The notes beneath the pieces were generated by a model. That model did not search any database. It was not told where the DNA came from and worked only from the letters and a program-made list of their open reading frames with translations. DNA of 64,000 nucleotides from an uncultured Gemmatimonadaceae bacterium (GTDB taxonomy: Bacteria; Gemmatimonadota; Gemmatimonadetes; Longimicrobiales; RSA9): contig CAYUIG010000002.1 in the NCBI GenBank assembly GCA_964444685.1, forward strand, positions 49,586-113,585, written 5' to 3'. Each line of letters begins with the position of its first letter. Within the stretch, counting starts at the first letter, position 1. A program made the position numbers and the translations under genes. This document shows positions 11,608 to 62,158 of this stretch, one piece after another.

Positions 11608-12651
11608 GTGCCGATGAAGGACTCCGAACTCCTCGGCGCGCGTATCCTCATCGTAGATGACGAGCGCGCCAACGTGCAGCTTCTGCATGGGTTCCTGCGG
11701 GCTTCCGGCTACACGCACGTCCAGAGCACCTCTGACCCGACCACGGTGGTCGCGCTCGTGCGTTCGTTCGATCCGGACCTGATCCTGCTGGACCTGCGGA
11801 TGCCCGGCCTCGACGGTTTCGGCGTGCTGGAGCAGCTCCGGCCGTGGACCGAGAGCTTCTACCTGCCCGTCCTCGTGCTGACCGGAGATATTTCAGAGGA
11901 AGCGAAACGCCGATCGCTCGCATCGGGTGCGCGCGACTTCCTGCACAAGCCGCTCAATCTGGTTGAGACGCGGCTGCGCATCCGCAATCTGCTGGAAACC
12001 CGCTTCCTGCATCTCGAACTCCGCCGGCAGAACCAGACGCTCGAAGCACGCGTGCGCGAGCGCACGCGCGAACTGGAACTCACACAGCTCGAGATTCTGG
12101 ACCGGCTGTCGATGGCGGCCGACTGCCGGGATGACGACACCGGCCAGCACACGCGACGCGTCAGCCACGAAGCCGCGCGCCTGGCCGAAGCGATCGGGCT
12201 GCCGCCCGACACCGTGGACCTGATCGAGCGCGCCGCCGCACTGCACGACATCGGCAAGATCGGCGTGCCCGACAACGTGCTGCTCAAGCCGGGACGCCTC
12301 ACACCCGAGGAAGCCGCCGTGATCCGCCGCCATCCCGCGATCGGCGCGCGCCTCCTCGGTGGCGGCCGCTCCCCGCTCATCCGACTCGCCGAGCAGATCG
12401 CGCTCTGTCATCACGAGCGCTGGGACGGCACCGGCTATCCGCGCGGGCTGCGCGGCGCGCAGATCCCGATCGCAGCACGCATCGTTGCGCTCGTGGATGT
12501 CGTGGACGCGCTTGCCTACGACCGCCCCTACCGCCGCGCGTGGCCGCGCGAACGCGTGATCCAGGAGATCCGCAGCCAGTCCGGACGCCACTTCGATCCG
12601 GAGCTGGTCGAGGCGTGGGTGGAGATGGAAGGGGCGGCCGTCGCCGCCTGA
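11608..12651 (+). CDS. response regulator with HD-GYP phosphodiesterase output (RpfG-like)
   Basis: Receiver ILIVDDERANV..DLILLDLRMPGLDG, followed by HD-GYP signatures HDIGKIGVPD and HHERWDGTGYPRGL. Confidence 0.9.
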   Translation: MPMKDSELLGARILIVDDERANVQLLHGFLRASGYTHVQSTSDPTTVVALVRSFDPDLILLDLRMPGLDGFGVLEQLRPWTESFYLPVLVLTGDISEEAKRRSLASGARDFLHKPLNLVETRLRIRNLLETRFLHLELRRQNQTLEARVRERTRELELTQLEILDRLSMAADCRDDDTGQHTRRVSHEAARLAEAIGLPPDTVDLIERAAALHDIGKIGVPDNVLLKPGRLTPEEAAVIRRHPAIGARLLGGGRSPLIRLAEQIALCHHERWDGTGYPRGLRGAQIPIAARIVALVDVVDALAYDRPYRRAWPRERVIQEIRSQSGRHFDPELVEAWVEMEGAAVAA

Positions 12652-12751
12652 GTCGAGAGTCGAGAGTCGAGAGGCGAGAGTCGAGAGCTGGGAAATGGCG
12701 GGATCCCGCTTTTTCCCAGCTCCCAGCTCTCGACTCCCGACTCCCGACTCA
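12650..12751. repeat. family-1 element, GTCGAGA-heptamer subtype (full palindromic copy)
   Basis: The left arm is GAGTCGAGAGTCGAGAGTCGAGAGGCGAGAGTCGAGAG. The core is CTGGGAAATGGCGGGATCCCGCTTTTTCCCAGC. The right arm is TCCCAGCTCTCGACTCCCGACTCCCGACTC. Confidence 0.9.
12698..12714. terminator. core hairpin GCGGGATCCCGC + TTTTT, likely bidirectional terminator between convergent genes
   Basis: A perfect 12-bp palindrome followed by T5 on the plus strand. It is flanked by the complementary GCTGGGAAA/TTTCCCAGC pair and lies between 11608..12651(+) and 12760..13389(-). Confidence 0.65.
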
Positions 12752-12759
12752 GTGCGTCG

Positions 12760-13389
12760 TCACCGACGACGCACCACCCAGACCTCGTCCACCCGCCCGT
12801 CACGATTCCGATCGATCAGCAGCGCGAGCGGCCGTCCGCCGGAGCGGAGCTGCAGGCCGTAACCCTGCTGCGTGACGGACCACACGCCGCTCATCGCGCT
12901 CGCATACCCTGCGCGGCGACGATAATCCTCGAAGCGATCGAAGGACCGGCGGCCGAGCAGATCCATCAGCTCGCGGCGGTTGAGCTCCCGCTGCCGGTAG
13001 CGCGGATTGAAGAACCCTACGTCCCAGCGCACGCGCTCCCAGTCGCGGCGCCAGCGATCGTCGTCGCGGTACCAGTCATCGTTGCGCCGGCCGTCGCGAT
13101 CGCGATCCCGGCGGTAACGATCGTCGTCGCGGCCGTAGCCGCGCTCCGCGCACCACCGCCAGCCGTGCACAGGGTGCCCCTGCCCGTTGCGGCAGAAGGC
13201 CGGCCCGCGCCGGTCGTCGTTGCGGATGCGGTCGCGGTCCCGGTCGCGATCCCGGTCCCGCTCGTTTCGCTCTGCGCGCGCCCTCTGGTCGCGCTCCGCG
13301 CGCGCACGCCCCGCCTGCTGCGCCTCCGCCGGCGCTGCCGCTGCGACAATGGCCAGTCCGGCCGCGAGTGCGAGAATCCTGCGTTTCAT
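12760..13389 (-). CDS. secreted, extremely Arg/Asp-rich protein (RD-dipeptide repeats)
   Basis: MKRRILALAAGLAIVAAAAPAEAQ signal with GGAGG RBS. Contains an ERDRDRDRDRDRIRNDDRR run and many W/R/D repeats. Start moved to the internal Met carrying the signal peptide. Confidence 0.65.
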   Translation of the reverse strand: MKRRILALAAGLAIVAAAAPAEAQQAGRARAERDQRARAERNERDRDRDRDRDRIRNDDRRGPAFCRNGQGHPVHGWRWCAERGYGRDDDRYRRDRDRDGRRNDDWYRDDDRWRRDWERVRWDVGFFNPRYRQRELNRRELMDLLGRRSFDRFEDYRRRAGYASAMSGVWSVTQQGYGLQLRSGGRPLALLIDRNRDGRVDEVWVVRRR

Positions 13390-13535
13390 CCGAGCCTCCA
13401 TGATGCCTGACGTCAGCATGGAGGTACACGGGCCATGCCCGGACCGAGATCGTTGCGGCACAATGACAACCCCGGGACGAGTAGACGCGCGCGACCTCCA
13501 GCGGGCACAGTGCGCCGTCCTCGATGGCGGACAGA

Positions 13536-14378
13536 TCAGCGCTCGATCGTCAGTTCGGGATCAGGAGCAAGCTCCGAGATGCCGCGCGTGGCCCGTACGG
13601 TCCCCTCGCGGCGGATCGCAGCCATGCGCTCGCGGTTGCGACGCATGACCTCGCGGTCCTTCCACGGCTGCGCGTGGTGCAGGTGGAACGCGACCGCGCG
13701 ATGCCGGGCCTGGATGCCGCGCACGCCCGCGTTCACGAGACGGTAGCCCAGCGCGCGATCCAGGCCGCCGTACCCCATCTCCCCCTCGAAGCCGTTCACC
13801 TCGAAGAGCGCGTCCTTCCAGACGGAAGCGTTGTTCCCGTGAAAGTGCGTGCGCGTGGGTGTGACCGCGTCCAGCAGCGCGGACAGTGTCCGCGAACGCA
13901 GCAGCCGCAGTGCGCGCCGTCTCGGCCGCCAGCCGATGGAACGAAGCCATGCGACGTCGCCGATCCGCCCGCTCGCCACATCCTCTGCCGTCACCCGCGC
14001 CGTCACGTCCGCGGGCAGCTTGAGGTATCCGCCGGCCACGAACCGGTCGGGGCGCGCAAGTCGCCGGTGCACGGCGATGAGGTCGTTGCGCGGGATGCAG
14101 TCGCCATCGGTGAAGAGCAGGTAGTCTCCGCCTGCGGCGACGATCGCGCGGTTCAGGATGTCGCATTTCCGGAATCCATCGTCCGCGTGCCGCACGTGCA
14201 CGATGGTGAGCCCGGTCTCATCCCGCAGCGAGCGGATGCGCGACGCCGTTCCCGCACCCGATCCATCATCGGCGATCAGGATCTCGACGTCGCGGTCGGT
14301 CTGCACGGCGTAACCGCGCAGCACGAGCTCGAGCGCGTCGGGCCGCTCGTATGTGGAAATGATGACGGAGATCTTCAT
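13536..14378 (-). CDS. glycosyltransferase family 2
   Basis: MKISVIISTYERPDALELVL..ILIADDGS is the classic GT2 N-terminus. The track N-terminal extension was rejected because it overlaps the upstream gene. Confidence 0.85.
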   Translation of the reverse strand: MKISVIISTYERPDALELVLRGYAVQTDRDVEILIADDGSGAGTASRIRSLRDETGLTIVHVRHADDGFRKCDILNRAIVAAGGDYLLFTDGDCIPRNDLIAVHRRLARPDRFVAGGYLKLPADVTARVTAEDVASGRIGDVAWLRSIGWRPRRRALRLLRSRTLSALLDAVTPTRTHFHGNNASVWKDALFEVNGFEGEMGYGGLDRALGYRLVNAGVRGIQARHRAVAFHLHHAQPWKDREVMRRNRERMAAIRREGTVRATRGISELAPDPELTIER

Positions 14379-15064
14379 GCGCCGCGCGGTACGCCCAGCA
14401 CCTCGGACGTGCGGCGCACGTCGTCGCCGAGGATGGGGCGCACCGAGTAGTCCAGCCTCTCGAGCCGGTCGATGCAACGCGCGTGCACATCCGCGCCGTG
14501 CGTCGAGAGGAAGAGCACCGGCCGCGCCGCGAACGTGCGCGCGCCGCCCTCGAGCACATCCATCTCCGCACCTTCGACATCCAGCTTCACGACATCGGGA
14601 ACGAGCCCGTGCTCCGCGCACAGGTCATCCAGCCTGCGCATGCGCACCTCGAGTGCACCCCCTTCAGCGACGCGTCCCGTTCCGCTCCCGGTGCCTTCGT
14701 CGAAACGCGCGGCGCCTTCGCGCGCACCGACTGCGACGTTCTCGATGTGCACGTTCTCGAGCCGGTTGAGCGAGACGTGCCGGCGCAGGAACGCGCAGTT
14801 GCGCGGATGCGGTTCGAACGACCACACGCGCCCTTCTTTCCCGGCGAGCCGCGCGGCGAGGAGTGTGTAGTAGCCGACGTGCGCACCGATGTCGAACACG
14901 GTGGCGCCGGGCCGCACGTGCTCGAGGAAGAGCGCGGTCTGCTCCGGCTCGTACGTCCCGAGGAGTACGCGCGCGAGCTTGCCGCCGCTCGACGGGAGCC
15001 ACTTCGTCCCGCGCAGCGGCCCCGCCGCGATCGGCACCGCGGGTCCATACCATGGATCGGCCAT
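14375..15064 (-). CDS. FkbM-family SAM-dependent methyltransferase
   Basis: VFDIGAHVGYYTLLAA..VWSFEP.P.N...L..N pattern typical of Methyltransf_21/FkbM. 4-bp overlap with the GT2 start. Confidence 0.8.
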   Translation of the reverse strand: MADPWYGPAVPIAAGPLRGTKWLPSSGGKLARVLLGTYEPEQTALFLEHVRPGATVFDIGAHVGYYTLLAARLAGKEGRVWSFEPHPRNCAFLRRHVSLNRLENVHIENVAVGAREGAARFDEGTGSGTGRVAEGGALEVRMRRLDDLCAEHGLVPDVVKLDVEGAEMDVLEGGARTFAARPVLFLSTHGADVHARCIDRLERLDYSVRPILGDDVRRTSEVLGVPRGA

Positions 15065-15159
15065 GCGTGAGAGTGTGTGCCGGCGCTGTTCGCGTCAACG
15101 CGCGTTGACGCGGTGAGCGCGCTGCGGCTAACGTCTTCGCGAACCTTCAGGAGGCCGCC

Positions 15160-15657
15160 ATGCGCATGCACCCAACCCTCGCCCTCATCGCCGTGCTGGC
15201 GGCGTGCGAGTCTGGACCCGATGCAGGACAGGTCGCGGAGGATGCCATCGAAACCGCAAACCGGGCGGTCACGGAGACGCTGACGGAGGTCGGGCTCGGC
15301 GAGCCCGTGGATTACACGCTCACGATCGAGAAGGCGCGCGCGTGGCGGGCCGCGATGCAACGGGTGGAGGGCCTGAAGTCCGGGGAGGAGAAGGCGGTCG
15401 ACCTGCAGGGCGACAACGTGCTGGCCGAACTCGAGGCCGAGCTGGAGCGGGACCCGCGCATGGTCGAGGCCATCCGGGCCGAAGGGCTGACCGTCCGGGA
15501 GTTCAGCATTCTGACGGTACTGCTGCCCCAGGCCCTGGTCATCCACGAAACCCGTAAGGCGGGCGTGGACCTGTCCTTCCCCATGGTCACTGACGACCAC
15601 GTCGCCTTCGTGGCCGCCCACGAGGCCGAGCTGCGCCGGATCCTGGACGACGATTGA
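15160..15657 (+). CDS. hypothetical lipoprotein
   Basis: MRMHPTLALIAVLAACESG lipobox with AGGAGG RBS. The mature part is helical and acidic. Confidence 0.6.
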   Translation: MRMHPTLALIAVLAACESGPDAGQVAEDAIETANRAVTETLTEVGLGEPVDYTLTIEKARAWRAAMQRVEGLKSGEEKAVDLQGDNVLAELEAELERDPRMVEAIRAEGLTVREFSILTVLLPQALVIHETRKAGVDLSFPMVTDDHVAFVAAHEAELRRILDDD

Positions 15658-15733
15658 CTGGTCCGTCCCGCCGGGGATTCACGCTTTTCACCGATGAGGG
15701 CAGGACCGAACCGAGACCCGGAGGACGACACCC

Positions 15734-16591
15734 ATGCTCCACTCTGTCGGAAGGGCCGCCGCGATCGGGCTGGTCGCGGCCACGTTCACGGCCCCGCGCG
15801 CCGCAGCGCAGGTCACCCCCGAGCTCCCGACCGTGAACGGCCGGGTCTCCGCCATCACCTTCTTCGAGATGGGTCCGGACTTCCCGGCCCTCGAGGACCG
15901 CCACTTCTCGAAGGAGTTCGACGTTGCCAGCGCCCGCTTCATCTCGACGCAGCTCGAGCTCGAGATGCCGGCACCGGGTCGCGTGGTGCAGATCCCGATC
16001 GTGTGCACCTACTTCCGCCCCGATGGGTCGGAGATGGGCAGCGCCGACCTGTCGTTCGAGATCCAGCCCGACTGGACCCGGCCCTACAACGCGCAGGGGC
16101 GCGGGTGGGCCGACGCCGGCAACTGGACCGTCGGCACCTATCGCGTCCGCTGCCTGAACGACGGGCGCGTCGTGGCCGAGGACACGTTCGAGATCGTGAA
16201 CAAGCCGCCCACGATCCCGAGCATCGGCGGCAAGCTGATGCAGCTGCGCTTCTACGCGTCCAGTGAAGGGACCGTCGCGCGCGAGCAGCGCCAGTACACG
16301 TCCAGCTTCCCGGCGAGCACGGCCTACATCAACATGGAGCTCCAGCTCGACCACGAGCCCATCGGCCGCACCGCCGAGGTGCCGATCGCCTGTCCCGTTG
16401 TCCGCCAGGACGGCACGCTAGCGGCCACGTACCGGATCTCCTTCGAGATTCAGGGTGACTGGCGAGACACCTTCGGCTCCACCGGCTGGGGTACCGCCGC
16501 CGGCGGCTGGTGGCGGCCCGGCGTGTACCGCGTATACTGCGTCGCCGAGGGGAATCTGATCGGGGAAGGCTGGTTCCGGGTCGAGGGCTGA
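15734..16591 (+). CDS. hypothetical secreted protein with internal two-domain duplication
   Basis: Signal peptide ending AAAQ. Two ~125-aa halves share FEIQ.DW....G.GW......W..G.YRV.C. GGAGG RBS. Confidence 0.65.
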   Translation: MLHSVGRAAAIGLVAATFTAPRAAAQVTPELPTVNGRVSAITFFEMGPDFPALEDRHFSKEFDVASARFISTQLELEMPAPGRVVQIPIVCTYFRPDGSEMGSADLSFEIQPDWTRPYNAQGRGWADAGNWTVGTYRVRCLNDGRVVAEDTFEIVNKPPTIPSIGGKLMQLRFYASSEGTVAREQRQYTSSFPASTAYINMELQLDHEPIGRTAEVPIACPVVRQDGTLAATYRISFEIQGDWRDTFGSTGWGTAAGGWWRPGVYRVYCVAEGNLIGEGWFRVEG

Positions 16592-16598
16592 TACGTTC

Positions 16599-16702
16599 CT
16601 GGAGTCTGGTGTCTGGTGTCTGGTGTCTGGTTGACGAGGGGTCCCGGGGGGTACCCCGCCGTAAATCAGACTCCAGACTCCAGACCCCAGTCTCCAGACT
16701 CC
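16599..16702. repeat. family-1 element, GTCTGG-hexamer subtype (full palindromic copy, inverted orientation)
   Basis: The left arm is CTGGAGTCTGGTGTCTGGTGTCTGGTGTCTGGT. The core contains GGGGTACCCC and CGCCGTAAA. The right arm is TCAGACTCCAGACTCCAGACCCCAGTCTCCAGACTCC. Confidence 0.9.
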
Positions 16703-16774
16703 GAAGCAACGGGATCCTCCACCCACCATCGCGGTATACACCGCGACCCGCAGAAGACGAGGAACCCGACCCCG

Positions 16775-17563
16775 ATGAAGACGCTGCGCCCCTTCGCCCT
16801 GCTCATCCTGCTGCTTCCCGGCTGTGCCGGGCTCCGTTTCGTATCCGATAACGAACCGGCTGCATCGGGCGCGCCGGCGCCGGTCGCACTGCCGGTCTCG
16901 CCGCGCATGGCGCCGCCGGCGGACGAAGCGGCATTGCGCGTATGGAACGAGGCGAACGCAGCGCGCGGCACGCGCATCGTCGTTTCGACGGGCGCGCGCA
17001 CGCTCTGGCTGATGCGCGACTCGATCGTCGTGTTCGCGGCACCGGTCGCGGTCGGGATGCACGAGCAGTTCTCCTACGGCGACCGCACGTACGACTTCAA
17101 GACGCCGATCGGGCGGCGCAAGGTGCTGCGCAAGGCGTTGAACCCGGTGTGGACGCCGCCGGAGTGGCACTACTACGAACAGGTGGTACAGCGCGGGCTG
17201 GAGCCGGTGCAGCTCAGGAAGGGCAGCCGCGTCGGGCTGGCCGACGGCACGCGCATCGAAGTGCGCGGCGACCAGGTCGGCCGCGTCAACCATCTCGGCA
17301 ACTTCTGGCCGTTCACCCCGGGCATGGAGATCATCTTCGACGGCAAGATCTTCATCCCGCCCTATGGCACGGTGCAGCGGCAGATTCCCGATGTGCTGGG
17401 CACGCACAAACTGGAGATGGGCGACGGCTACCTGATCCACGGCACGAACGAAGAAGACTCGATCGGCGAGGCGGTGAGCCACGGCTGCGTGCGGATGTAT
17501 AACGCCGACGTGGAGCGCCTCTACGAGATCGTGCCCGTCGGGACGCCGGTCTTCATCTACTGA
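16775..17563 (+). CDS. L,D-transpeptidase (YkuD domain) lipoprotein
   Basis: MKTLRPFALLILLLPGCAG lipobox and the catalytic HGTNEEDSIGEAVSHGCVRM motif. The track N-terminal extension translates the repeat element and was rejected. Confidence 0.85.
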   Translation: MKTLRPFALLILLLPGCAGLRFVSDNEPAASGAPAPVALPVSPRMAPPADEAALRVWNEANAARGTRIVVSTGARTLWLMRDSIVVFAAPVAVGMHEQFSYGDRTYDFKTPIGRRKVLRKALNPVWTPPEWHYYEQVVQRGLEPVQLRKGSRVGLADGTRIEVRGDQVGRVNHLGNFWPFTPGMEIIFDGKIFIPPYGTVQRQIPDVLGTHKLEMGDGYLIHGTNEEDSIGEAVSHGCVRMYNADVERLYEIVPVGTPVFIY

Positions 17564-22524: not shown

Positions 22525-24957
22525 ATGCACGACATCCTCCGCGACCTCCGCTACTCCCTGCGCACGCTGCGACGGAGCCCCGGCTTCACCCTCGCCGCGC
22601 TCCTGACGCTGGCCCTGGGCATCGGCGCGAATACCGCCGTCTTCAGCCTCGTTCACGGCGTGCTGCTGCGGCCGCTGTCGTATCCGGAGGCCTCGGAGCT
22701 CACGGTGCTGTGGGCGAGGAACCTGCGCGAGAACATCGAGCGGGACATCACGTCCTACCCGAACTTCACGGACTGGCAGTCACGGACGCGGGTTTTCGAG
22801 AGCATGGCGGCGAATGCCGGCACGTTCGCCACGCTGACGGGCGCCGGCGAACCAGAGCAGCTCCGGGCTGCTCTCGTCACGCAGGACTTTTTCAGGACGC
22901 TCGGTGTCACGCCGGCGGTCGGGCGTGTCCCGGCGGCGGACGAGCACACTGCCGGCGGGCCGCAGGTCGTCGTGCTGTCGCATGGGGTCTGGCAGGAGCG
23001 CTTCGGCGCGGACCCATCGGTCGCAGGTCGCACGATCAGCCTGAACGGCGATCCGTACACAGTGGTCGGCGTGATGCCGCGCGATTTCGCGCATCCCGAG
23101 GATGCGCGTCTGTGGATGCCGCTCGAAGCACGCGCATCGCTCCAGCAGCAGCTCGAGGCGCGCGGCGCACTATGGCTCTCCGTCATCGGCCGACTCGCAC
23201 CGGGAGTCGAGCTCACGCGTGCGCAGAACGAGATGACGTCGATCGCGGCCGCGCTCGAGGAGGAGTACCCGGACGCGAACGAGGGCATGGGCGTGTTCGT
23301 CGAACCGCTGCACGAGACGATCGTCGGGGACGTCCGTCCCGCGCTGCTCGTGCTACTCGGCGCCGTCGCGTTCGTGCTGCTCATCGCGTGCGCGAACGTT
23401 GCCAACCTGCTGCTCGCGCGCGGTGCGGGCCGCCGCAAGGAACTCGCGGTGCGCATCGCGATCGGCGCCGAGCGCGGTCGCATCATCCGTCAGCTCGTCA
23501 CCGAGAGCCTCGTGCTCGCGGTCGCGGGCGGAGCGACGGGACTGTTGCTGGCTTCGTGGGCGGTGAGTGCGCTCGCGGCCGCGGGCTCCGTCGACCTGCC
23601 AAGGATCGCCGACGTGCGCATCGATCCGACCGTCGCGCTCTTCACGGTCGGACTCTCGATCGCCGCCGGCATCCTGTTCGGCCTCGCACCGGCACTCCAG
23701 GCCGCGGGACGCGATGTCGCGGCTTCCCTGCGCCAGGGCGGGCGTGAAGATGCCAGCGGCGAGTCCGCCGTACGCCTGCGCCCGATCCTGGTCGTCGCCG
23801 AGATCGCGCTCGCGCTCGTGCTCCTCTCCGGCGCCGGCCTGATGATCCGCAGCTTCGCCGCGATGGCCGCCCTCGACCCCGGCTTCAATCCCGATGGTGT
23901 ACTGACCGTGCGCATGGCGCCTTCACCACGAGCCTATCCCGAGGACGAGGACCTGACCGCGTTCTGGCAGGAAGTCGTACAGCGCGTGGGTACACTGCCG
24001 GGCGTTCGCTCCGCGGGCGCCGTGTCCACGCTCTTCCTCGCCCGGCTGCCCAACATGACGAGCATCGCGGTGGAGGGCGCGCCGCCGCCGCCCGACAACG
24101 CGCCCGTCGTATCGGTCGCGTACTCCGGTGCCACGCCCGGCTACCTCGATGCATTCGGTCTCCGCCTCGCCGCCGGTCGCGACTTCGACACGCGCGACCG
24201 CGCCGACGGCCAGGCCGTGGCGATCGTCAACGAGACGTTCCTTCGCCAGTTCATGCCGGAAGGCGATCCGATCGGCCGCCGCTTCACATACAACAATCCC
24301 GAGAATCCCGACGCGGTCTGGCAGACGGTCATCGGCGTGATCCGCGATGCAAAGCGCTCCGGCCTCGACCAGCCGGTACGACCCGAGGCCTACCATCCGA
24401 CCACGCAGTTCGCCGCACGCAGCATGACGCTGCTCGTGCGCACGGGCGGCGATCCGCTCGCGCTCGCACAGCCCATCCGTTCCCTCGTGCGCGGCATCGA
24501 TGCCGACATGCCGATCGCACGCGTTGCCACCGTGAACGAGCTGATGTCGGAGTCCGTTGCGACCCGGCGCCTCGTCGCGCGCACGCTCCTCGCCTTTTCC
24601 GTGCTCGCCACGGTGCTCGCCGGTATCGGCATCTACGGTGTGATGGCGTACCTCGTCGGCAGGCGCACGCGCGAGCTGGGCATCCGCATGGCGCTCGGCG
24701 CCGATCCCGGCGACGTCGTGAAGCTCGTGCTGCGTCAGGCCGGCACCCAGATCGCGGCCGGCCTCGTGCTCGGTGTGGGCGGTGCGATCACACTGACGCG
24801 TTTCCTGTCCAGCCAGCTTTTTGGTGTGAGCCCTACGGATCCGCTGACACTCTCAGCCGTAGCGGGCGTTCTGGCAGGCGCGGCGCTGCTTGCGAGCTGG
24901 GTGCCCGCACGGCGCGCGGCCCGCGTGGATCCGATGCGTGTGATGCGCGCGGAATAG
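22525..24957 (+). CDS. ADOP-family duplicated permease (MacB-like, 2x FtsX), no ATPase domain
   Basis: N-terminus DLRYSLRTLRRSPGFT, 810 aa, two FtsX-like 4-TM modules, C-terminal ARRAARVDPMRVMRAE. Confidence 0.9.
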   Translation: MHDILRDLRYSLRTLRRSPGFTLAALLTLALGIGANTAVFSLVHGVLLRPLSYPEASELTVLWARNLRENIERDITSYPNFTDWQSRTRVFESMAANAGTFATLTGAGEPEQLRAALVTQDFFRTLGVTPAVGRVPAADEHTAGGPQVVVLSHGVWQERFGADPSVAGRTISLNGDPYTVVGVMPRDFAHPEDARLWMPLEARASLQQQLEARGALWLSVIGRLAPGVELTRAQNEMTSIAAALEEEYPDANEGMGVFVEPLHETIVGDVRPALLVLLGAVAFVLLIACANVANLLLARGAGRRKELAVRIAIGAERGRIIRQLVTESLVLAVAGGATGLLLASWAVSALAAAGSVDLPRIADVRIDPTVALFTVGLSIAAGILFGLAPALQAAGRDVAASLRQGGREDASGESAVRLRPILVVAEIALALVLLSGAGLMIRSFAAMAALDPGFNPDGVLTVRMAPSPRAYPEDEDLTAFWQEVVQRVGTLPGVRSAGAVSTLFLARLPNMTSIAVEGAPPPPDNAPVVSVAYSGATPGYLDAFGLRLAAGRDFDTRDRADGQAVAIVNETFLRQFMPEGDPIGRRFTYNNPENPDAVWQTVIGVIRDAKRSGLDQPVRPEAYHPTTQFAARSMTLLVRTGGDPLALAQPIRSLVRGIDADMPIARVATVNELMSESVATRRLVARTLLAFSVLATVLAGIGIYGVMAYLVGRRTRELGIRMALGADPGDVVKLVLRQAGTQIAAGLVLGVGGAITLTRFLSSQLFGVSPTDPLTLSAVAGVLAGAALLASWVPARRAARVDPMRVMRAE

Positions 24958-28424: not shown

Positions 28425-28509
28425 TTCTGGGTCTGGTGTCTGGAGTCTGGGGTCTGGGGTCTGGTTTACTTCGGGGTCGAGTCTCGAGGGTCGGGGGTCG
28501 AGGGTCGAG
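28425..28509. repeat. family-1 element, chimeric copy (GTCTGG array joined to GTCGAG array)
   Basis: TTCTGGGTCTGGTGTCTGGAGTCTGGGGTCTGGGGTCTGG, then TTTACTTCGG, then GGTCGAGTCTCGAGGGTCGGGGGTCGAGGGTCGAG. The two arms are not self-complementary. Confidence 0.85.
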
Positions 28510-28774
28510 CAACTGCGAAGGCGGGTTGCGCCGGCACGTTGCACCGCCCAAACAGAAATTCTCCCGCAGTTCTCCGCGTCCCCGGCGTCTCTGCGGTGAA
28601 TGAAGTTTCCCGTCCCGGCGAAGACGCCTTCCCACGAGCGCAACGACACGAGGAGCCGCGGAGCGCCCGGAAATCACGCAAGCTCAAGAACGACAACAAC
28701 TCCCCGGGCTCGCCGCGGAGCGGCCCGGAACCTTCCTGTCTGCCACGGACCGACGTAGCTTGACCGCAACCCGG

Positions 28775-31210: not shown

Positions 31211-31240
31211 ACCAGACACCAGACTCCAGACCCCAGACCC
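31207..31240. repeat. family-1 half-element (right arm only: GTAAACCAGACACCAGACTCCAGACCCCAGACCC)
   Basis: Matches the CCGTAAACCAGACCCCAGAC junction of the full copy at 61432-61450. Confidence 0.85.
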
Positions 31241-34253: not shown

Positions 34254-34811
34254 TCAGGCCTCCTTCCGCTGGCGGACATCGCGCGTTGCACGATCGATCA
34301 CGTCTCGCAACTCCTTCAGCGCATCGGTGTTCCCCGCGCGGCGCATCGCCTCCTCGAAGCTCGCCTGCGCGAAACGCACGAACGACTTCGTCACTTCGCC
34401 CATCGCGGGACCCGTGAAGCGATCCGCCATCGCGCTGATCCGATCCGTCACATCGTCGACCCGCTCGCTGTGCTCCGTCAGGAACGCACGACCCGCCTCC
34501 GTGATCGTGTACACGCGCTTGCCGTCACGATCCTCCGACGTCACGTAACCTTGGTCCTGGAGCAGCTGCAGCACCGGATACACGGAACCCGGACTCGCCG
34601 AATACCAGCCGCCGGCTTCCGCCTCCAGCGCCTGCATCACCTCGTAGCCGTGCATCGGCTTCTCCCACAGCAGCCGCAGGATTACGTACTTCAGGTCGCC
34701 GCGGTCGAATACACGCTTGCGCGGACCCCGCTTCCCGAAATCCGGCCCGCACGCCGCCGCCCACGGCCCGAATCCCCAGTCACCCCAGCCACCAAAGCCT
34801 GCGCGACCCAT
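34254..34811 (-). CDS. PadR-family transcriptional regulator
   Basis: LKYVILRLLWEKPMHGYEVMQALE....W..SPGSVYPVLQLLQDQGYV winged-helix signature. Start moved to the Met with GAGGAGG 6 nt upstream. The track extension translates a repeat. Confidence 0.85.
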   Translation of the reverse strand: MGRAGFGGWGDWGFGPWAAACGPDFGKRGPRKRVFDRGDLKYVILRLLWEKPMHGYEVMQALEAEAGGWYSASPGSVYPVLQLLQDQGYVTSEDRDGKRVYTITEAGRAFLTEHSERVDDVTDRISAMADRFTGPAMGEVTKSFVRFAQASFEEAMRRAGNTDALKELRDVIDRATRDVRQRKEA

Positions 34812-34826
34812 CGCATCCTCCTCGAA

Positions 34827-34857
34827 GCTCGACTCCCGACTCCTGACTCTCGACTCC
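34827..34857. repeat. family-1 half-element (GCTCGACTCCCGACTCCTGACTCTCGACTCC)
   Basis: Same CTCCCGACTC units as 12730-12751 and 33651-33670. Confidence 0.8.
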
Positions 34858-34966
34858 ATACGTTCCGATATATCGCGAAGTTTCGCGATCCCGGATCTGA
34901 TTTACGGGACGGAACTTGCATGATGGGGAGGGGAACCCTCACGGCGAACCAGAAGGAGGCAGCAGT

Positions 34967-35720: not shown

Positions 35721-35777
35721 TACGCGATGTCGGGCCGCGGGCCGGTGGCGCAGCGCGCGTCACCGGCCCGCGCGCGT

Positions 35778-38646: not shown

Positions 38647-38677
38647 CCCCTCTGCGCCCTCCGCGCCTCCGTGGTGA
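38647..38677. repeat. family-2 repeat fragment (CCCTCTGCGCCCTCCGCGCCTCCGTGGTGAG)
   Basis: Matches CTCCGCGCCCTCCGCGCCTCCGCGGTGAA at 54059-54086 with 2-3 mismatches. Confidence 0.8.
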
Positions 38678-39541: not shown

Positions 39542-39544
39542 CCT

Positions 39545-39776: not shown

Positions 39777-39777
39777 T

Positions 39778-42897: not shown

Positions 42898-44250
42898 GTG
42901 ACGCCTGTACGCATCCCCGCCGGCTTCGCCGGCACGCAGCTCACGCCCGACGATCCCGGTTACGCTGAAGCCATACGCCTCTTCAACGGCGCGGTGAACA
43001 AGCGACCCGCGCTGGTCGCGCGCTGCGCGAACGAGGCCGACGTCGTCGCCGCCGTCCGCTTCGCGCGTGAGCAGAGCCTCCCGCTCTCCGTCCGCGCCGG
43101 CGGCCACAACGTCTCCGGCAACGCGCTCGTCGACGGTGGTCTCGTGATCGACCTCCGCTCCATCAACGGCGTGGAGGTCGACCCGGTGAACCGCATCGCG
43201 CGCGCGGGCGCCGGTGCCACATGGTCGCAGTTCGACAGGGCCACGCAGGCGCACGGCCTGGCCACTACCGGCGGGGCCGTGTCCACGACCGGGATCGCGG
43301 GCCTCACCCTCGGCGGCGGCATCGGCTGGCTCATGCGCATGCACGGCCTCGCATGCGACAACCTGATCGGCGCGCGCATGGTCACGGCCGAAGGCGAAAT
43401 CGTCACGGTAGGCCCCGACCAGCCCGAGCTGCTCTGGGGGCTCCGCGGAGGCGGCGGCAACTTCGGCGTCGTCACGCGCCTCGACTACCGCCTGCACCCC
43501 GTCGACAGCGTCTGGGGCGGGATGATCATCTTCCCGCAGGCCCGTGCGGTGGAAGTCCTCGGCGCCGTACGCGCCATCAATGACGTCGCCCCCGACAACC
43601 TGATGACGATGGCCGTGCTCGGCACACACCCGGAGGCCGGCCCGATCGTCGGCGCGCTCGTCGGCGGCTTCGGTGACAATGCGGCCGCCGAACGGATCGC
43701 GGCACCCCTGCGTGCACTGGAGCCGGTGGCGGACCTGCTCGGGCCCATGAAGTACGTCGAGCTCCAGTCGATGCTCGATCCACTGCTCTCCGAGGGCTTC
43801 TACCACTACTGGAAGTCCAACTTCCTGACCCGACTGGATGATGAAGTCGCCGCGGCCATGCAGAAGGTCATGAGCGCGGCACCGACCCCGTTCTGCCAGA
43901 TCGTCATCGAGCAGTTCAGCGGCGAGGCCGCGCGCGTACCCGTCGATGCCACGGCGTTCGCGCAGCGCAACGCGCCCTACAACATGGCGATCCTCGGGAT
44001 GTCTGCCGGACCGGAGGATTACGCGGCGGCGCGCGACTGGGCGCGCGCAACGTGGCGGGCCCTCGAGCCCTTCTGCGCCGAGGGTGTGTACCTGAACTAC
44101 CTCGGTTCCGTCGAGGAGGAAGGCGCACAGCGCGTACGCGACGCCTGGGGCGCCGATACCCTCGCCCGCCTCGCCGCGCTCAAAGCCGTCTGGGATCCCG
44201 CGAACGTGTTCCGGTCGAATCAGAACGTCACGCCGGCGCTGCTTGCTTGA
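42898..44250 (+). CDS. FAD-linked oxidase (FAD_binding_4 with C-terminal BBE-like domain)
   Basis: GTG start with GGAGG 6 nt upstream. P..V..C....DV..AVRFARE..L.LSVRAGGHN..G and C-terminal LKA.WDP.NVFR.NQN. The track N-terminal extension overlaps korA antisense and was rejected. Confidence 0.85.
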   Translation: MTPVRIPAGFAGTQLTPDDPGYAEAIRLFNGAVNKRPALVARCANEADVVAAVRFAREQSLPLSVRAGGHNVSGNALVDGGLVIDLRSINGVEVDPVNRIARAGAGATWSQFDRATQAHGLATTGGAVSTTGIAGLTLGGGIGWLMRMHGLACDNLIGARMVTAEGEIVTVGPDQPELLWGLRGGGGNFGVVTRLDYRLHPVDSVWGGMIIFPQARAVEVLGAVRAINDVAPDNLMTMAVLGTHPEAGPIVGALVGGFGDNAAAERIAAPLRALEPVADLLGPMKYVELQSMLDPLLSEGFYHYWKSNFLTRLDDEVAAAMQKVMSAAPTPFCQIVIEQFSGEAARVPVDATAFAQRNAPYNMAILGMSAGPEDYAAARDWARATWRALEPFCAEGVYLNYLGSVEEEGAQRVRDAWGADTLARLAALKAVWDPANVFRSNQNVTPALLA

Positions 44251-44258
44251 GCTGCGGT

Positions 44259-44362
44259 TTCTGGGGTCTGGGGTCTGGAGTCTGGAGTCTGGAGTCTGGA
44301 GTCTGGTTTACGGCGGGGTCACCCCGCATTCAACCAGACCCCAGACCCCAGACCCCAGACTC
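44259..44362. repeat. family-1 element, GTCTGG-hexamer subtype (full copy) between convergent genes
   Basis: The left arm is TTCTGGGGTCTGGGGTCTGGAGTCTGGAGTCTGGAGTCTGGAGTCTGG. The core is TTTACGGCGGGGTCACCCCGCATTCAA. The right arm is CCAGACCCCAGACCCCAGACCCCAGACTC. Confidence 0.9.
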
Positions 44363-44367
44363 GAGTT

Positions 44368-44961
44368 TCAGAGCGATGCTAGAAGCACCCCCAGATCCTT
44401 CCAGCCATAGTTCCCATTCCCCGGATCCTCGTCCGTCTTCACGGCCCCCATCGCCACCCACGCCGCGGCGGATGGATTGCGCGGGTCGCCGTACAGCCAC
44501 ATGGACGTGATGCCCGTGGCGAGGAAACGCTGCGCAACGAGCCGGACGAGCCTGCGGCCGAGACCGAGCCGCTGATACTCGCGCAGCAGATAGATCTTGT
44601 TCAGTTCGCCGCCGTACTCCGGATTGTCGCTCAGGTTCGCCTGTGCGAAACCGATTAGCTCGCCCTGTTCGTTCTCGACCACGAAGCAGAACCAGCTCCC
44701 GTCATCTTTGGCGAAGCGTTCCCGCCATTGCCGCTCGCGGACCGCGACCGGCGGGCCTTTCGCACCCATCGGTGCGTACGTCGCGTTCCAGGTCGTGACG
44801 TGCAACTCCGCAAGCCCGGGGATGTCGGACTCGCGCGCCTCGCGGATTACGAGCGATTCGAGCGACTCACCGCGCGCGCGCATGCGGTCCTCGTTGCGGG
44901 TAGAGGATGGCCGTGTGGCCGCGATGAGACGTCGCCAGAGTCCGAAAATGACGGCTTTCAT
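44368..44961 (-). CDS. GNAT-family N-acetyltransferase
   Basis: Start at MKAVIF with GGAGG RBS. Acetyl-CoA motif REYQRLGLGRRLV. The track extension to 45495 runs antisense through the neighbouring gene. Confidence 0.85.
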   Translation of the reverse strand: MKAVIFGLWRRLIAATRPSSTRNEDRMRARGESLESLVIREARESDIPGLAELHVTTWNATYAPMGAKGPPVAVRERQWRERFAKDDGSWFCFVVENEQGELIGFAQANLSDNPEYGGELNKIYLLREYQRLGLGRRLVRLVAQRFLATGITSMWLYGDPRNPSAAAWVAMGAVKTDEDPGNGNYGWKDLGVLLASL

Positions 44962-45226: not shown

Positions 45227-47467
45227 CTACGATATCGGTCGCCCGCGCGGGCGCAGGATGAACAGTCCCTCGTTGATGCTGGACACCAGCACGGCGCCGC
45301 TCTCGAGGAACGGGTACGCCGTCCACGCGCCGCCGAAGAAGCCGGTCGGATTCGAGCCGTACGGCGTCGTGTCGAAGTGTCCGATCTCGACCGGTTTCGT
45401 CGGATCCGAGATGTCGACCACGCGCAGCCCCGCGTGATAATTGGCGAGGTACATGCGGTCGCCGCGGATGAAGAGGTTGTGGTCGGTCGAGCCATCCGGC
45501 CCGAGCAGCTCGCCTGCGATCACCGGGTCGTCGAGGTCGGCCACATCCCAGACCAGTGTCTTCGTGCGCGTCGTCGTGCCCACCAGCTCGTCCAGCTCGT
45601 CGTCCAGGAAGAAGTACCGCTGATCCTCGGTGAGCCAGCCCTGATGGATGTATCCGCGACCCGGATAGTCCGCTTTCGATATCGGCTTCGGCGACCCGGC
45701 GTCCGTCACGTCCACGATGCGCAGCGCCGTCTCGTTGCTCGCGAAGCAGATGCGCTTGCCACGATGCTCCGCATCCGGCCCGCGATAGATCACGCACTGC
45801 GCGTCGTGCGTGCGACCCGGCGCGATCAGCCCTTCCGTGTCGGTATAGCACCCCGCGAACTTCGGCGCGCGCGGCTCGGTGATGTCGACCATGTGCAATC
45901 CGCCGCCGCAGGTGTTCCCGCCCGCGCTCGCAGCCACGGGTATGGCCAGTCCCGTCTCCGTCTCGATCGCGAGATTGTGTGCACTCGCGATGCCGGTGTA
46001 GACCGTGTCCGGGCGATGCACGCCCGCCGACGTGATCGTGCGCAGGCGAGTGAGGTCGAACACCACCAGGCCGTGCGCGCCCGCGCCGTCGCCCGTGAAG
46101 AACATGTGGTCGCGGTACACCTTCACATCGCGCGCACCGCTCGGGTTGCCGGGCACGAGCCCGAGATACCGTGGCGACGCGGGGTCCGTCACATCCACGA
46201 GCGCGATACCGGCCGTGCGTCCGACGAGTGCATACTCGCGACCCGTCTCGCGATCCGTCCAGCCCCAGAGGTCGCTCACGCGCTCCCACGGCTCGGCGCC
46301 CATCGATGCCAGCGGCAGGAACGCGAGCAGGTCCACGTTCGCGCAGTCGAACCCCGCAGCCGCACCGTCCGCGCATCGCACTTCACCCGTCACTTCGACG
46401 AGCGGCTCCGTACCCACGAGGCGGCCGTCGAACTCCCACGCATCACCGGAACGGCGCCACACGTACGCTGCACCTTCACCCGGTGCACCGGCGACGACGA
46501 TCCCCTCCGATGCTGCGATCGATGCACCGACACCGGCGCCCCGCGGAGCACCGTTCACGTCCAGGTCGTTGCCGAACCGCCAGCGGTCGCCTGCGCGCAC
46601 CCAGCGCTGCACGCCGCCCATGGAAGGTTTGCCGATCCACAGCTCATCACCGTGCAATGCGAGTGAACCCAGCCCCTGCGCTTCGATCCGCTGCACCACT
46701 TCCCAAGCGCCCGTGACGGGCCGGCGCACGAGCACCTGATCCGCAAGCCCGAGGAGCACGGCATCACCGTCGATCGCGAGCGCCCGGGGACGGTCGGGCA
46801 ACGTTGTGGTGACGTGCCACGTCGCACCGTTGTGTTCCAGGATCGCAACGCCATTGCCGGTAGCGACCGCGATCCGATCTCGCGCAGCCGCGAGCACGGG
46901 CGGACCTGCAATGTCCCCCTCGAGGGCGAGCCGCGCCGTTTCCGTCCACTCGCCGCCGCGCTGCTCCATGACGATCAGTTCGGGTCCGCCCGAACCGCCG
47001 CCCGCGAATGCGAGCACGGATCCATCCGCGGAAATCGCAACCGCGCGCGCCGGCGGTGCGGCCAGCCGCATGATGCCGGCGAGATCCAGGGCCGGCGCGG
47101 CGGCCCCGTTCCGCTCCATCCGCGGCACACGCAGCGCAGGCCGCCACGACGACGGCGGTGCAAGGAAGACATTGGCCGCCCACACACCATCCGGGTCTCC
47201 GGCCGCCACGACGAGCGCATCGGAGGTAAAGGCCAGTGACGCGCTGAACCGCTCGCCCGGTCCGCCGTCGATGGGATGCAGCCGTGCGACCTCACGCCAT
47301 TCGCCGCCCGCTCGCCCGAATACGATGGCGGCCGACAAACCGCGATCGAGGTCCGGCTTCACGACCGCGATGGTTTCTCCCGAAACCGCCACGGCACGCC
47401 CGAAACCATCCTGCGCCATTGCGCCGGCCGGGATCATCAGTATCAGAAACGCGAGCGTGAGTCGCAT
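45227..47467 (-). CDS. secreted choice-of-anchor-B (LVIVD-repeat) protein with N-terminal FG-GAP-like propeller region
   Basis: Signal MRLTLAFLILMIPAGAMAQ with GAGGTG RBS. The C-terminal half has SDLWGWTDRETGREYALVG...VDVTDP..P, typical of choice-of-anchor B/LVIVD proteins. Confidence 0.75.
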   Translation of the reverse strand: MRLTLAFLILMIPAGAMAQDGFGRAVAVSGETIAVVKPDLDRGLSAAIVFGRAGGEWREVARLHPIDGGPGERFSASLAFTSDALVVAAGDPDGVWAANVFLAPPSSWRPALRVPRMERNGAAAPALDLAGIMRLAAPPARAVAISADGSVLAFAGGGSGGPELIVMEQRGGEWTETARLALEGDIAGPPVLAAARDRIAVATGNGVAILEHNGATWHVTTTLPDRPRALAIDGDAVLLGLADQVLVRRPVTGAWEVVQRIEAQGLGSLALHGDELWIGKPSMGGVQRWVRAGDRWRFGNDLDVNGAPRGAGVGASIAASEGIVVAGAPGEGAAYVWRRSGDAWEFDGRLVGTEPLVEVTGEVRCADGAAAGFDCANVDLLAFLPLASMGAEPWERVSDLWGWTDRETGREYALVGRTAGIALVDVTDPASPRYLGLVPGNPSGARDVKVYRDHMFFTGDGAGAHGLVVFDLTRLRTITSAGVHRPDTVYTGIASAHNLAIETETGLAIPVAASAGGNTCGGGLHMVDITEPRAPKFAGCYTDTEGLIAPGRTHDAQCVIYRGPDAEHRGKRICFASNETALRIVDVTDAGSPKPISKADYPGRGYIHQGWLTEDQRYFFLDDELDELVGTTTRTKTLVWDVADLDDPVIAGELLGPDGSTDHNLFIRGDRMYLANYHAGLRVVDISDPTKPVEIGHFDTTPYGSNPTGFFGGAWTAYPFLESGAVLVSSINEGLFILRPRGRPIS

Positions 47468-47558
47468 ACGGTCACCTCGGGGACACGTGGGTCGGCCGAA
47501 CGCCGATTCAATCAACGTTGGCGTCGACGACTCGGCTGCGCCAGCACGCGGCGCCGAC

Positions 47559-47588
47559 TTGACACGGCCCGACCCTCCGCGGTATGCT
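47559..47588 (+). promoter_or_regulatory. candidate sigma-70-type promoter (TTGACA, 18 nt spacer, TATGCT)
   Basis: Seen by eye 45 nt upstream of ATG 47633. A perfect -35 hexamer is rare in this GC context. Confidence 0.35.
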
Positions 47589-47632
47589 GTCCTAAACAGC
47601 TTAGGAGAAAGCTGCCCCGAGGAGACCAGCCC

Positions 47633-50218
<2,586 letters not shown>

Positions 50219-61306: not shown

Positions 61307-61364
61307 GGGACTCCCGGGTAGGGCTGGTTCGTCTACTGATACGGCGTGTCCCGCGTCAATTCAA

Positions 61365-61473
61365 GGAGTCTGGAGTCTGGGGTCTGGGGTCTGGAGTCTG
61401 GTGTCTGATTTAGTGCGGGTTTGCATCCCGCCGTAAACCAGACCCCAGACACCAGACCCCAGACTCCAGACCC
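61365..61473. repeat. family-1 element, GTCTGG-hexamer subtype (full copy)
   Basis: The left arm is GGAGTCTGGAGTCTGGGGTCTGGGGTCTGGAGTCTGGTGTCTG. The core is ATTTAGTGCGGGTTTGCATCCCGCCGTAAA. The right arm is CCAGACCCCAGACACCAGACCCCAGACTCCAGACCC. Confidence 0.9.
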
Positions 61474-61481
61474 TGAAGTTC

Positions 61482-61835
61482 TCAGAGAACCTTCGGATGG
61501 TCCGGCAGGTTCGGCACCACGCAGATGAACTCGAACGGCTCGTTCCCCGTGACCTCGTACGAATGTGGGACGCTCGCCGGGATGTAGACGACGTCGTCCG
61601 CGCCCACCTCGAACGACTCCTCGCCGATCGTGATGCGCGCTCGGCCGCGCAGGACGTACTGCTCGTGCTCGACCGTGTTCGTGTGCCGTGGCATGCCGCC
61701 GCCCGGCTGCATGATGAACCGGCGCAGCGCGAAGTTCGGCGCCTCGCCTGGCCCGATCAACACCTGCCGCACCGCCTCCTTGCCGGCCGTGACCGGCTCC
61801 CGTTCCACCGTGTCCGCCTTCCGTACGAAGCTCAT
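61482..61835 (-). CDS. cupin-domain protein
   Basis: G..PRH.H..EHE.YVL.G.......E......D.VYIP....H two-motif cupin signature. 117 aa. Confidence 0.8.
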   Translation of the reverse strand: MSFVRKADTVEREPVTAGKEAVRQVLIGPGEAPNFALRRFIMQPGGGMPRHTNTVEHEQYVLRGRARITIGEESFEVGADDVVYIPASVPHSYEVTGNEPFEFICVVPNLPDHPKVL

Positions 61836-62068
61836 GACGCCTCCGCGCTCGCCGTCGCCCGCGTGGACGGCCGGACAACCAGGGAATCGAACATGCGACG
61901 CGTCACTTCCGTGACCTCGTCGACCGCACGTTCGAACGCTGCTTCATTCACCTTCGACGGCTTCCGGTAGCCCGAGAGCTTCCGGATGTACTGGAGCGCC
62001 GCGTCCCGCAGCTCCTCGTCGGACGGTGCGCCGTCCTCCCGCCTCAGCACCTTGATGTTCCTGCACAT
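61832..62068 (-). CDS. DUF2277-like small protein
   Basis: MCRNIKVLRR....PSDEELRDAALQYIRKLSG matches the characteristic MCRNI opening of DUF2277. The track extension translates a repeat. 4-bp overlap with the cupin gene. Confidence 0.65.
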   Translation of the reverse strand: MCRNIKVLRREDGAPSDEELRDAALQYIRKLSGYRKPSKVNEAAFERAVDEVTEVTRRMFDSLVVRPSTRATASAEAS

Positions 62069-62123
62069 GTCGCCCTCGCCTCCGGTTGAACCTGCCAGTA
62101 TCCTTACCCACAAGCCCGACCCG

Positions 62124-62158
62124 CGGTCAACCAGACCCAGACTCCAGACCCCAGACTC
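62124..62158. repeat. family-1 half-element (GGTCAACCAGACCCAGACTCCAGACCCCAGACTC) ending 1 nt before a start codon
   Basis: Parallels ATTCAACCAGACCCCAGACCCCAGACCCCAGACTCGAG of the 44.3-kb copy. Confidence 0.85.

Follow-up and report, generated by a model that had tools for sequence, protein, structure and literature searches.

Heptanucleotide-repeat palindromes with a conserved hairpin core at gene ends of an uncultured Gemmatimonadota bacterium

A 64,000-nt stretch of DNA from an uncultured Gemmatimonadaceae bacterium (GTDB: Gemmatimonadota; Longimicrobiales; RSA9; assembly GCA_964444685.1, contig CAYUIG010000002.1, positions 49,586–113,585; hereafter the window) carries a dispersed family of elements in which short tandem repeats form the two arms of a palindrome around a small GC hairpin. 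The locus raises the question of what kind of repeat this is, how its arrays arise and whether the elements act on the transcripts whose ends they adjoin. A preliminary description of the window had reported nine copies, read the repeat unit as a hexamer, considered the architecture to be an unfamiliar one and suggested a mobile or expandable terminator module. As detailed below, the inventory and the position of the copies stand, while the unit and the novelty of the architecture do not.

All nine copies were found again at their reported positions, four as full palindromes (c1–c4) and five as partial or chimeric copies (c5–c9); we refer to the G-rich array of an element as the G-arm and to its complement as the C-arm. 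Tandem Repeats Finder (TRF) returned a period of 7 in every arm, so the unit is a heptamer rather than a hexamer. It reads NGTCTGG, with N mostly A, G or T, in c2–c6 and c9, and NGTCGAG or NGTCGGG in c1, c5, c7 and c8. Because the two unit types (NGTCTGG and NGTCGRG) differ by only one or two bases and lie next to each other in c5 and c7, we regard them as one family. The pattern GTCTGGNGTCTGG, with up to one mismatch, matches the window 35 times against 0.41 matches expected, and a generalised exact two-unit pattern, GTCKRGNGTCKRG, matches 37 times against 0.41 in shuffled sequence, a roughly 90-fold excess. As all 37 of the latter matches fall inside the nine sites, the inventory is complete. 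Strict arrays of period 7 number six in the window, the G+C content of which is 63–70%, and every other period from 4 to 12 yields none or one. Eight of the nine sites are intergenic, the ninth (c7) lying within the coding sequence of a histidine kinase. The elements thus share with intergenic heptanucleotide simple sequence repeats (SSRs) a 7-nt unit repeated head to tail, a bias towards non-coding DNA and open reading frame (ORF) ends, and an excess of period 7 over neighboring periods, which holds for the window and for 807 kb of other loci. Their membership in this known kind of repeat is well supported.

The fold of every full copy is a single long, imperfect hairpin, with RNA energies of −65 to −86 kcal/mol and z-scores of −7 to −11 on either strand; folding as DNA gave z-scores in the same range, −7 to −11. 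Among the sliding 110-nt windows tested over the 64 kb, c1–c4 rank first to fourth in stability. The stems are built of 6-bp blocks that are interrupted, at most seventh positions, by a mismatch or a G-U wobble. Aligned with the G-arm first, the copies read (NGTCTGG)n–TTTAC–GGCGGG–loop–CCCGC–nnTCAA/GTAAA–(CCAGACN)n. An 11-nt half of this core, TTTACGGCGGG, has exact matches at only three sites in the window, all of which adjoin the G-arm of a full copy, and variants of it are present in three further copies. The shorter motif TTKACNGCGG occurs five times, in all five cases at the end of an array, and CTGGTTKAC occurs six times against 0.35 expected, again exclusively at array ends, so that it marks six of the nine ends of GTCTGG arrays. 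In c1 the TTKAC junction has an analogue, AAATG-GCGGGATCCCGC-TTTTT. The TTKAC junction was not found in the GTCTGG arrays of other genomes; since junction and core are common to the copies in the window and missing from GTCTGG arrays elsewhere, we consider the copies to be a homologous, lineage-specific family, in line with the preliminary description of a dispersed family with microsatellite-like arms around a small GC hairpin. The loops and the 3′ halves of the core vary among copies, and Rfam covariance models gave no match at gathering score on either strand of the whole window. A full palindrome consists of two oriented half-modules placed face to face, with the GC stem in common.

A gene map based on Pfam matches, the ORF list and G+C content at third codon positions (GC3) places the full copies, none of which is assigned a strand, 0–9 nt past stop codons, with c1 and c3 completely filling convergent gaps and c2 and c4 filling co-directional ones. 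Element c1 (12650–12751), defined by period, fold and gene map and intact in independent assemblies, occupies the convergent gap between a response-regulator/HD gene and a minus-strand gene with its stop codon at 12760–12762; its first unit overlaps the TGA of the former (12649–12651) and its end lies 8–9 nt from the convergent stop. Its left arm is (GAGTCGA)x5.4 (12650–12687) and its right arm (CTCCCGA)x3.4 (12727–12750), with an inner stem GCTGGG/CCCAGC and the A-tract/T-tract core at 12693–12714. The other three were delimited by period, two-unit pattern, fold and core alignment. Element c2 (16599–16702) begins 8 nt past the stop codon (16589–16591) of the plus-strand gene 15734–16591 and comprises a G-arm (NGTCTGG)x4.7 (16599–16630), the core TTGACGAGGGGTCCCGGGGGGTACCCCGCCGTAAA (16631–16665) and a C-arm (16666–16702); the ATG of a YkuD gene (16775) follows 72 nt beyond it. 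Element c3 (44259–44362) occupies a convergent gap between a FAD/BBE oxidase gene (stop codon 44248–44250) and a GNAT gene on the minus strand (stop codon 44368–44370), with a G-arm (NGTCTGG)x6.7 (44259–44306), the core TTTACGGCGGGGTCACCCCGCATTCAA (44307–44333) and a C-arm (CCAGACC)x3.9 (44334–44360). Element c4 (61365–61473) has its G-arm at 61365–61408, the core TTTAGTGCGGGTTTGCATCCCGCCGTAAA at 61409–61437 and its C-arm at 61438–61473; viewed on the minus strand, it begins 9 nt past the stop codon of a cupin gene (61482–61484), and 58 nt separate its end from the start of a GltD-like oxidoreductase gene (61306).

A hairpin with TTTTT directly 3′ of it, as in a canonical intrinsic terminator, was found only in c1, and scans with consensus promoters and terminators returned no matches at the elements. 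Consensus hairpin-plus-T-tract sites are themselves fewer than expected over 60 kb (9 versus approximately 21 in shuffles), and other convergent gaps contain plain GC hairpins (for example at 35721–35777). Based on these two observations, hairpins without a U-tract are likely the usual 3′ structure in this high-GC soil bacterium. The sole convincing hairpin-plus-T-tract site in positions 1–60000, CCCCGTTCCGGGG-TTTCATTT, lies at 50270, before an Lhr helicase gene. A promoter function of the TTKAC...TAAAYC core was considered and dropped, because the final T is missing from its −10-like hexamers and the scans gave no supporting match.

The five remaining copies show the same modules in other arrangements. 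In c5 (28425–28509, plus strand), (NGTCTGG)x5, TTTACTTCGG and (GGGTCGA)x5 follow one another in a divergent intergenic region; both arrays have the same orientation, and the copy is not palindromic. Element c6 (31193–31240, minus strand), like c8 and c9 a half copy, combines a hairpin, CTGCGGGGTCCGCAG (31193–31207), with (CCAGACN)x4 (31212–31240). The hairpin encodes the final codons of a MacB-like permease, the stop codon TAA (31208–31210) lies within the GTAAA junction, and the array ends 24 nt before the ATG of a sigma-54 response regulator. Five C-type heptamers on the plus strand, CACCAGA CGCCAGT CTCGAGT CTCCCGA CTCCCGA, make up c7 (33631–33670) inside the histidine-kinase coding sequence (32636–34003), where they are translated in frame as PDASLESPDSRL. 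Element c8 (34827–34857, minus strand) is a (NGTCGRG)x4 array in the 5′ leader of a PadR gene, the true start of which is likely the ATG at 34811, preceded by GGAGG. In c9 (62118–62158, minus strand), (NGTCTGG)x4 is followed by TTGACCGCGG; seen on the plus strand, a C-rich array adjoins the ATG (62160) of an ArsC-family gene, within the divergent region that this gene shares with a DUF2277 gene. The earlier remark that the arrays create spurious ORFs and false N-terminal extensions holds: the ORF list contains array-crossing ORFs at 16616..17563, 61333..61878 and 44052..44510, and the c8 array gives a false N-terminal extension in ORF 34254..34859.

The same population, at 99.3–100% identity, is present in short-read (Logan) assemblies from two studies (metagenomes SRR31189351-57 and SRR9016293-98), the contigs of which were compared over 12734–16628 and 61442–64000 of the window. 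These contigs start or stop within the GTCTGG arrays at c2 and c4, and some run exactly from c1 to c2. As independent assemblies hold c1 intact and end in the c2 and c4 arrays, the arrays are real and not an assembly artefact; the breaks inside c2 and c4 also suggest that such arrays recur elsewhere in the genome. Short-read contigs break in elements other than c1, which limits the comparison of unit numbers to c1. The single-nucleotide polymorphisms found among the contigs are concentrated at their ends, and c1 has none.

Signs of past changes in length come from the arrays themselves and from relatives. In several arms, higher-order periods of 14 or 21 nt outscore 7 in TRF, suggesting duplication of two- or three-unit blocks, and the number of units can be unequal between the arms of one element (7 versus 4 in c3). 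The named homologues closest to the histidine kinase come from Longimicrobiales (67% and 64% identity) and from Gemmatimonadaceae (57%); for the GltD-like protein, they include Longimicrobiales and Gemmatimonadetes. Element c7 coincides with an insertion of 6–9 residues relative to 14 of 14 aligned homologues of the kinase. Relative to four of them, some among the closest, the insertion is exactly 7 residues, that is, 21 nt or three heptamers, the shortest multiple of 7 nt that keeps the reading frame; this in-frame insertion points to local expansion. The window has the 54-nt c6 spacer between the permease and regulator genes; a 71%-identical relative has no spacer there, and its two genes overlap by 4 nt. 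No heptamer arrays were found in 13–15 kb of another, approximately 70%-identical relative.

In species-representative genomes, four consecutive units, (GTCTGGN)4, matched more than 115 stretches, distributed over Verrucomicrobiota, Planctomycetota, Acidobacteriota, Gemmatimonadota, Actinomycetota, Chloroflexota, Cyanobacteria, Bacteroidota and Proteobacteria. The 807 kb around these matches contain 240 arrays of period 7 with 76 different consensus units, compared to 21 arrays of period 4, 1–8 for each of periods 5, 6, 8, 9, 10 and 12, and no array of period 11. Metagenome-assembled genomes of Gemmatimonadales and Longimicrobiales carry both unit types, which occupy stop-to-start or stop-to-stop gaps, and palindromic GTCTGG elements with a conserved core of their own, AGTCAAAAG...CTTTTGACT, are common in Pyrinomonadaceae. 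In other genomes, the G-rich array has its complementary array on the downstream side in 27 cases and on the upstream side in 5, and all four full copies of the window have the G-arm first. These counts stem from an explicit test for complementary arrays, used instead of a fold-based search for partner arms, which was too permissive (57 downstream versus 47 upstream). The inverted pairs conform to the convergent-only arrangement of intergenic heptanucleotide SSRs, with the G-rich arm 5′. Of 19 palindromic GTCTGG elements elsewhere, 12 adjoin the stop codon of an ORF that is 80 amino acids or longer, whereas 25% would do so if placed at random. Such arrays are rare in 977 kb of other soil contigs, which were selected via a protein, and two of these contigs carry palindromic heptamer arrays with other units.

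The notion that GTCTGGN itself is a special cross-phylum family was rejected, as permuted control units turn up as well and most viral matches belong to one phage locus: in the viral collection IMG/VR, GTCTGGN is found in 111 contigs, two permuted controls in 64 and 18, and GTCGGGN in 17. More than half of the 111 viral contigs with (GTCTGGN)4-5, as well as Massilia phyllosphaerae, show the context '...ggtttta (GTCTGGA)4 CTAAGGtt...' followed by iteron-like gggtt/aaccc repeats. This context resembles a conserved phage origin or operator and is unrelated to the Gemmatimonadota elements. Isolates of Gammaproteobacteria and Bacteroidota, for example Parathalassolituus penaei, harbor GTCTGGN arrays of 14–91 unbroken units, which far exceed those of the window.

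Taking these results together, we lean, with some reserve, towards a reading in which the elements are slippage-generated heptamer arrays anchored on GC hairpins, and in which the full palindromes act as terminators or as hairpins that protect 3′ ends. The building block is an oriented module, (NGTCTGG)n or (NGTCGRG)n followed by an A/T pentamer (TTKAC or AAAWN) and then GCGGG; two facing modules sharing the GCGGG/CCCGC stem yield a 100–110-nt imperfect hairpin of 6-bp helical blocks. Arrays may gain or lose one to three units at a time, through replication slippage or unequal exchange, and growth would halt at sequence under selection, which would explain the exact filling of gaps between stop codons. 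The full palindromes might serve as factor-independent, mostly U-tract-poor stops for transcription from both sides and/or protect 3′ ends, as their position suggests, and the half copies could be by-products of the same array process in 5′ leaders and in one coding loop. For the functional part of this proposal, that is, two-way termination or 3′ protection as judged from position and fold, we see the chances as about evenly balanced.

Several observations weigh against this reading. Element c1 is spanned in four assemblies with identical sequence and unchanged length, so that an expandable nature, plausible from the 14- and 21-nt periods, the unequal arms and the insertion of 6–9 codons, is not matched by length polymorphism there. 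Only 3 of 13 unit pairs, compared in register, have complementary bases at the variable seventh position, indicating that perfect pairing of the arms is not maintained. The cores of c2–c4 lack a 3′ U-tract and their A/T patches are reversed in polarity relative to a canonical terminator; of the terminator module proposed at the outset, the gene-end position and the A-tract/hairpin/T-tract of c1 stand. A terminator would serve no purpose in 5′ leaders or between divergent genes, yet half copies are located there. Finally, slippage alone leaves the conserved junction motif and the strict 7-nt step unexplained. Two further routes to paired arrays were considered and rejected. Arm-to-arm templating or quasi-palindrome correction finds no support in unit identity, which is about the same within arms as between them, or in the low count of complementary variable bases; telomerase-like addition would fit the orientation, but predicts arrays inside the core halves, and the arrays lie outside.

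The arms could also be inert. A slippage bias specific for 7-nt units would then place arrays wherever selection allows, as in short gaps past stop codons, and the hairpins would be pre-existing ordinary terminator stems that were later flanked by arrays. That the heptamer excess spans many unrelated units and phyla, that arrays are missing from the ~70%-identical relative and rare in the soil contigs, that the seventh position is not kept complementary and that Rehm et al. found no regulatory role for heptamer repeats (2015; PMC4692102) all speak for such a functionless by-product. However, the orientation bias of 27 versus 5 and the convergent-only rule of the Xanthomonas repeats are not expected of neutral slippage, which also fails to account for the conserved junction motif and for the maintenance of both arms in each palindrome; we therefore regard this explanation as rather unlikely. 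The copies could also belong to a mobile element. A transposase with its gene outside the element, such as a REP-associated tyrosine transposase (RAYT), would then recognise the conserved palindromic core TTTACGGCGGG...CCCGCCGTAAA and copy it to new gene ends in the manner of repetitive extragenic palindromic (REP) sequences, their paired REPIN forms or miniature inverted-repeat transposable elements (MITEs), with the heptamer arms as subterminal binding sites or as by-products of transposase action. The exact 11-nt core half in three full copies and nowhere else in the window, the confinement of CTGGTTKAC (6 versus 0.35 expected) and TTKACNGCGG (5/5) to array ends, and the absence of the junction from GTCTGG arrays of other genomes indicate copies that are homologous rather than independent; moreover, the core has the size of a REP and the c6 spacer is missing in a relative. 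Against mobility, which the preliminary description had entertained, no target-site duplications or flanking direct repeats are present at the borders of c1–c4, and no transposase, RAYT or Y1 domain was detected in the 53 window ORFs that were scanned against Pfam. The conserved part is internal and the outer ends vary in length and sequence, the opposite of an element bounded by terminal inverted repeats (TIRs). The loops and 3′ core halves differ, and GTCGAGA and 8–9-nt units build similar palindromes in the same window. We hold a mobile element to be improbable, and agree with the earlier view that the copies are neither TIR-bounded MITEs nor clustered regularly interspaced short palindromic repeats (CRISPR), their 7-nt units being contiguous, without spacers.

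Two more explanations carry still less weight. The arrays might form non-B DNA, with G-quadruplexes (G4) in (GGGGTCT)n and i-motifs in the C-arms, or bind a protein at each unit, and thereby tune promoters or translation starts. Such a role would suit c5, which lies in a divergent promoter region and has seven runs of at least three G on one strand, and the C-rich arrays of c9 and c6 directly upstream of starts, a placement also known from TAACTGA repeats (PMC4679880); in addition, heptamers of Xanthomonas and Nostoc form G4 structures in vitro (PMC4692102). Most units, however, offer only GG (N = A or T), c5 is the only copy with four G-runs of at least three, duplex or hairpin formation competes with G4 in the palindromes, and no candidate binding protein was identified; we judge this explanation to be very improbable. 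A more speculative thought, to which we attach little credence, is that (NGTCTGG)n-TTKAC-N-GCGGG is a self-propagating unit of a new kind, in which an enzyme recognises the REP-sized hairpin core and nicking or template switching at the foot of the hairpin makes the arrays. If this were true, the excess of heptamers in many bacteria would stem from an active process directed by hairpins, not from passive slippage, and further gene ends would acquire terminator hairpins as the elements spread.

Heptanucleotides are the most over-represented class of long SSR in many bacteria, and questions about their cause and function date from 1990 and 2007. The window provides a compact example from a poorly studied phylum, in which the junction motif, the arms flush with stop codons, the expansion in the kinase and the G-arm-first rule make these questions testable. 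On the practical side, short-read assemblies are interrupted by the elements precisely at gene ends, and annotation acquires false ORFs and false N-terminal extensions from them.

Other features of the window include a second type of palindrome with tandem-repeat arms, in the convergent gap 39542–39777 (−126 kcal/mol). It is composed of 8–9-nt units, CCGCAGAG, and CGCGGAGGG against CTCCGCGG. Approximately 0.6 kb of non-coding DNA upstream of a gene with an Lnb_N domain (38720–39541) contains 9-mers of related sequence as well as a 41-nt x3.5 tandem repeat (38102–38127, 38508–38649 and 38648–38671). Further upstream, a serpin gene (36199–37623, minus strand, Pfam E = 1e-102) is overlapped by a plus-strand ORF (36884–38095) of equally high GC3, which looks coding beyond 37624 and ends with a TGA (38093–38095) just before the CCGCAGAG repeats. 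The plus-strand ORF 59151–59513 matches only the last ~67 of 645 positions of an H+-pyrophosphatase model, apparently as a C-terminal gene fragment, and converges on and overlaps the end of the GltD-like gene. Three large, duplicated permease genes of the MacB/FtsX type (ADOP-like) are located at 22525–24957, 28760–31210 and 47276–50218; one of them is followed by genes for a sigma-54 response regulator and an NtrY-like kinase, with a PadR regulator nearby.

How do the elements compare with known systems? In high-GC genomes, hairpin-only ('I-shaped') and bidirectional intrinsic terminators are GC stem-loops directly past stop codons, often without a U-tract and common to convergent genes. With its A-tract/hairpin/T-tract layout, c1 resembles the bidirectional type, but ordinary terminators have unique stems of 5–15 bp, whereas the elements of the window have stems of 35–45 bp made of 7-nt blocks with periodic mismatches. 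Like REP sequences, their mosaic arrangements (BIMEs) and REPINs, the elements are dispersed, extragenic, imperfect palindromes at gene ends with a conserved core of similar size, and REPs, too, often lie in convergent gaps, where they can stabilise upstream mRNA. Unlike the elements, REPs have stems of unique sequence and a conserved 5′ tetranucleotide recognised by RAYT; within the 64-kb window, it is the TTTACGGCGGG half-core that recurs, exactly in three copies and as variants in three, and the bulk of the stem is tandem repeat. Short tandemly repeated repetitive (STRR) heptamers were reportedly described from heterocystous cyanobacteria by Mazel et al. in 1990 (as cited in PMC4692102). 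One STRR unit, CCCCAGT, is a single base away from the C-arm unit CCCCAGA, and CCCCAGT itself is present in c2. STRRs share the dispersed, intergenic, tandem-heptamer character, but belong to low-GC cyanobacteria, form plain direct arrays used mainly for fingerprinting and are not known to have a core hairpin.

Heptanucleotides are the most abundant class of long SSR in most genomes, for which polymerase-related slippage has been proposed (Mrazek 2007, as cited in PMC4679880 and PMC4692102). Close counterparts are the repeats of Xanthomonas, with 183–186 GGGAATC-type arrays per genome, 89–93% of them intergenic and on average 28 nt past the upstream ORF, and with 70–75 inverted pairs per genome that are always convergent and capable of forming a stem-loop (PMC4692102). 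Similar GGGGA(C/T)T repeats occur in Nostoc PCC 7120 (Rehm et al. 2015, PMC4692102). As in the window, these are tandem heptamers with conserved and variable positions and a strong intergenic preference, there ~90% (PMC4692102); they comprise two to tens of units, with about four the commonest number, and are rare between divergent genes. The window and the Xanthomonas repeats thus follow common rules, namely a 7-nt unit, an intergenic bias, convergent pairing and a G-rich coding strand just past ORFs. They differ in the unit (NGTCTGG/NGTCGRG), in the phylum (Gemmatimonadota) and in G-runs that are mostly too short for a classical G4; the TTKAC-N-GCGG junction and the small GC hairpin between the arms are features described here for the window elements. 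TAACTGA arrays, found in marine Beggiatoaceae, cyanobacteria and Bacteroidetes, mostly end just before start codons (MacGregor 2015, PMC4679880). They, too, are intergenic heptamers of scattered phylogeny, with 2–6 units, and many end 1 nt before the start codon, as c9 does, but they are AT-rich, contain in-frame stops, are situated mostly in 5′ regions and are inverted in only 1 of 170 sets (PMC4679880). A literature search for the unit strings of the window found no paper that names them as repeats and returned only coincidental primer matches. The architecture had seemed without precedent in the preliminary description, but intergenic heptamer repeats, including the convergent pairs of Xanthomonas, have been published (PMC4692102; Mrazek 2007, as reported in PMC4679880). 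The kind itself has therefore already been described, and what is new here is its phylum, its unit and its conserved junction and hairpin core.

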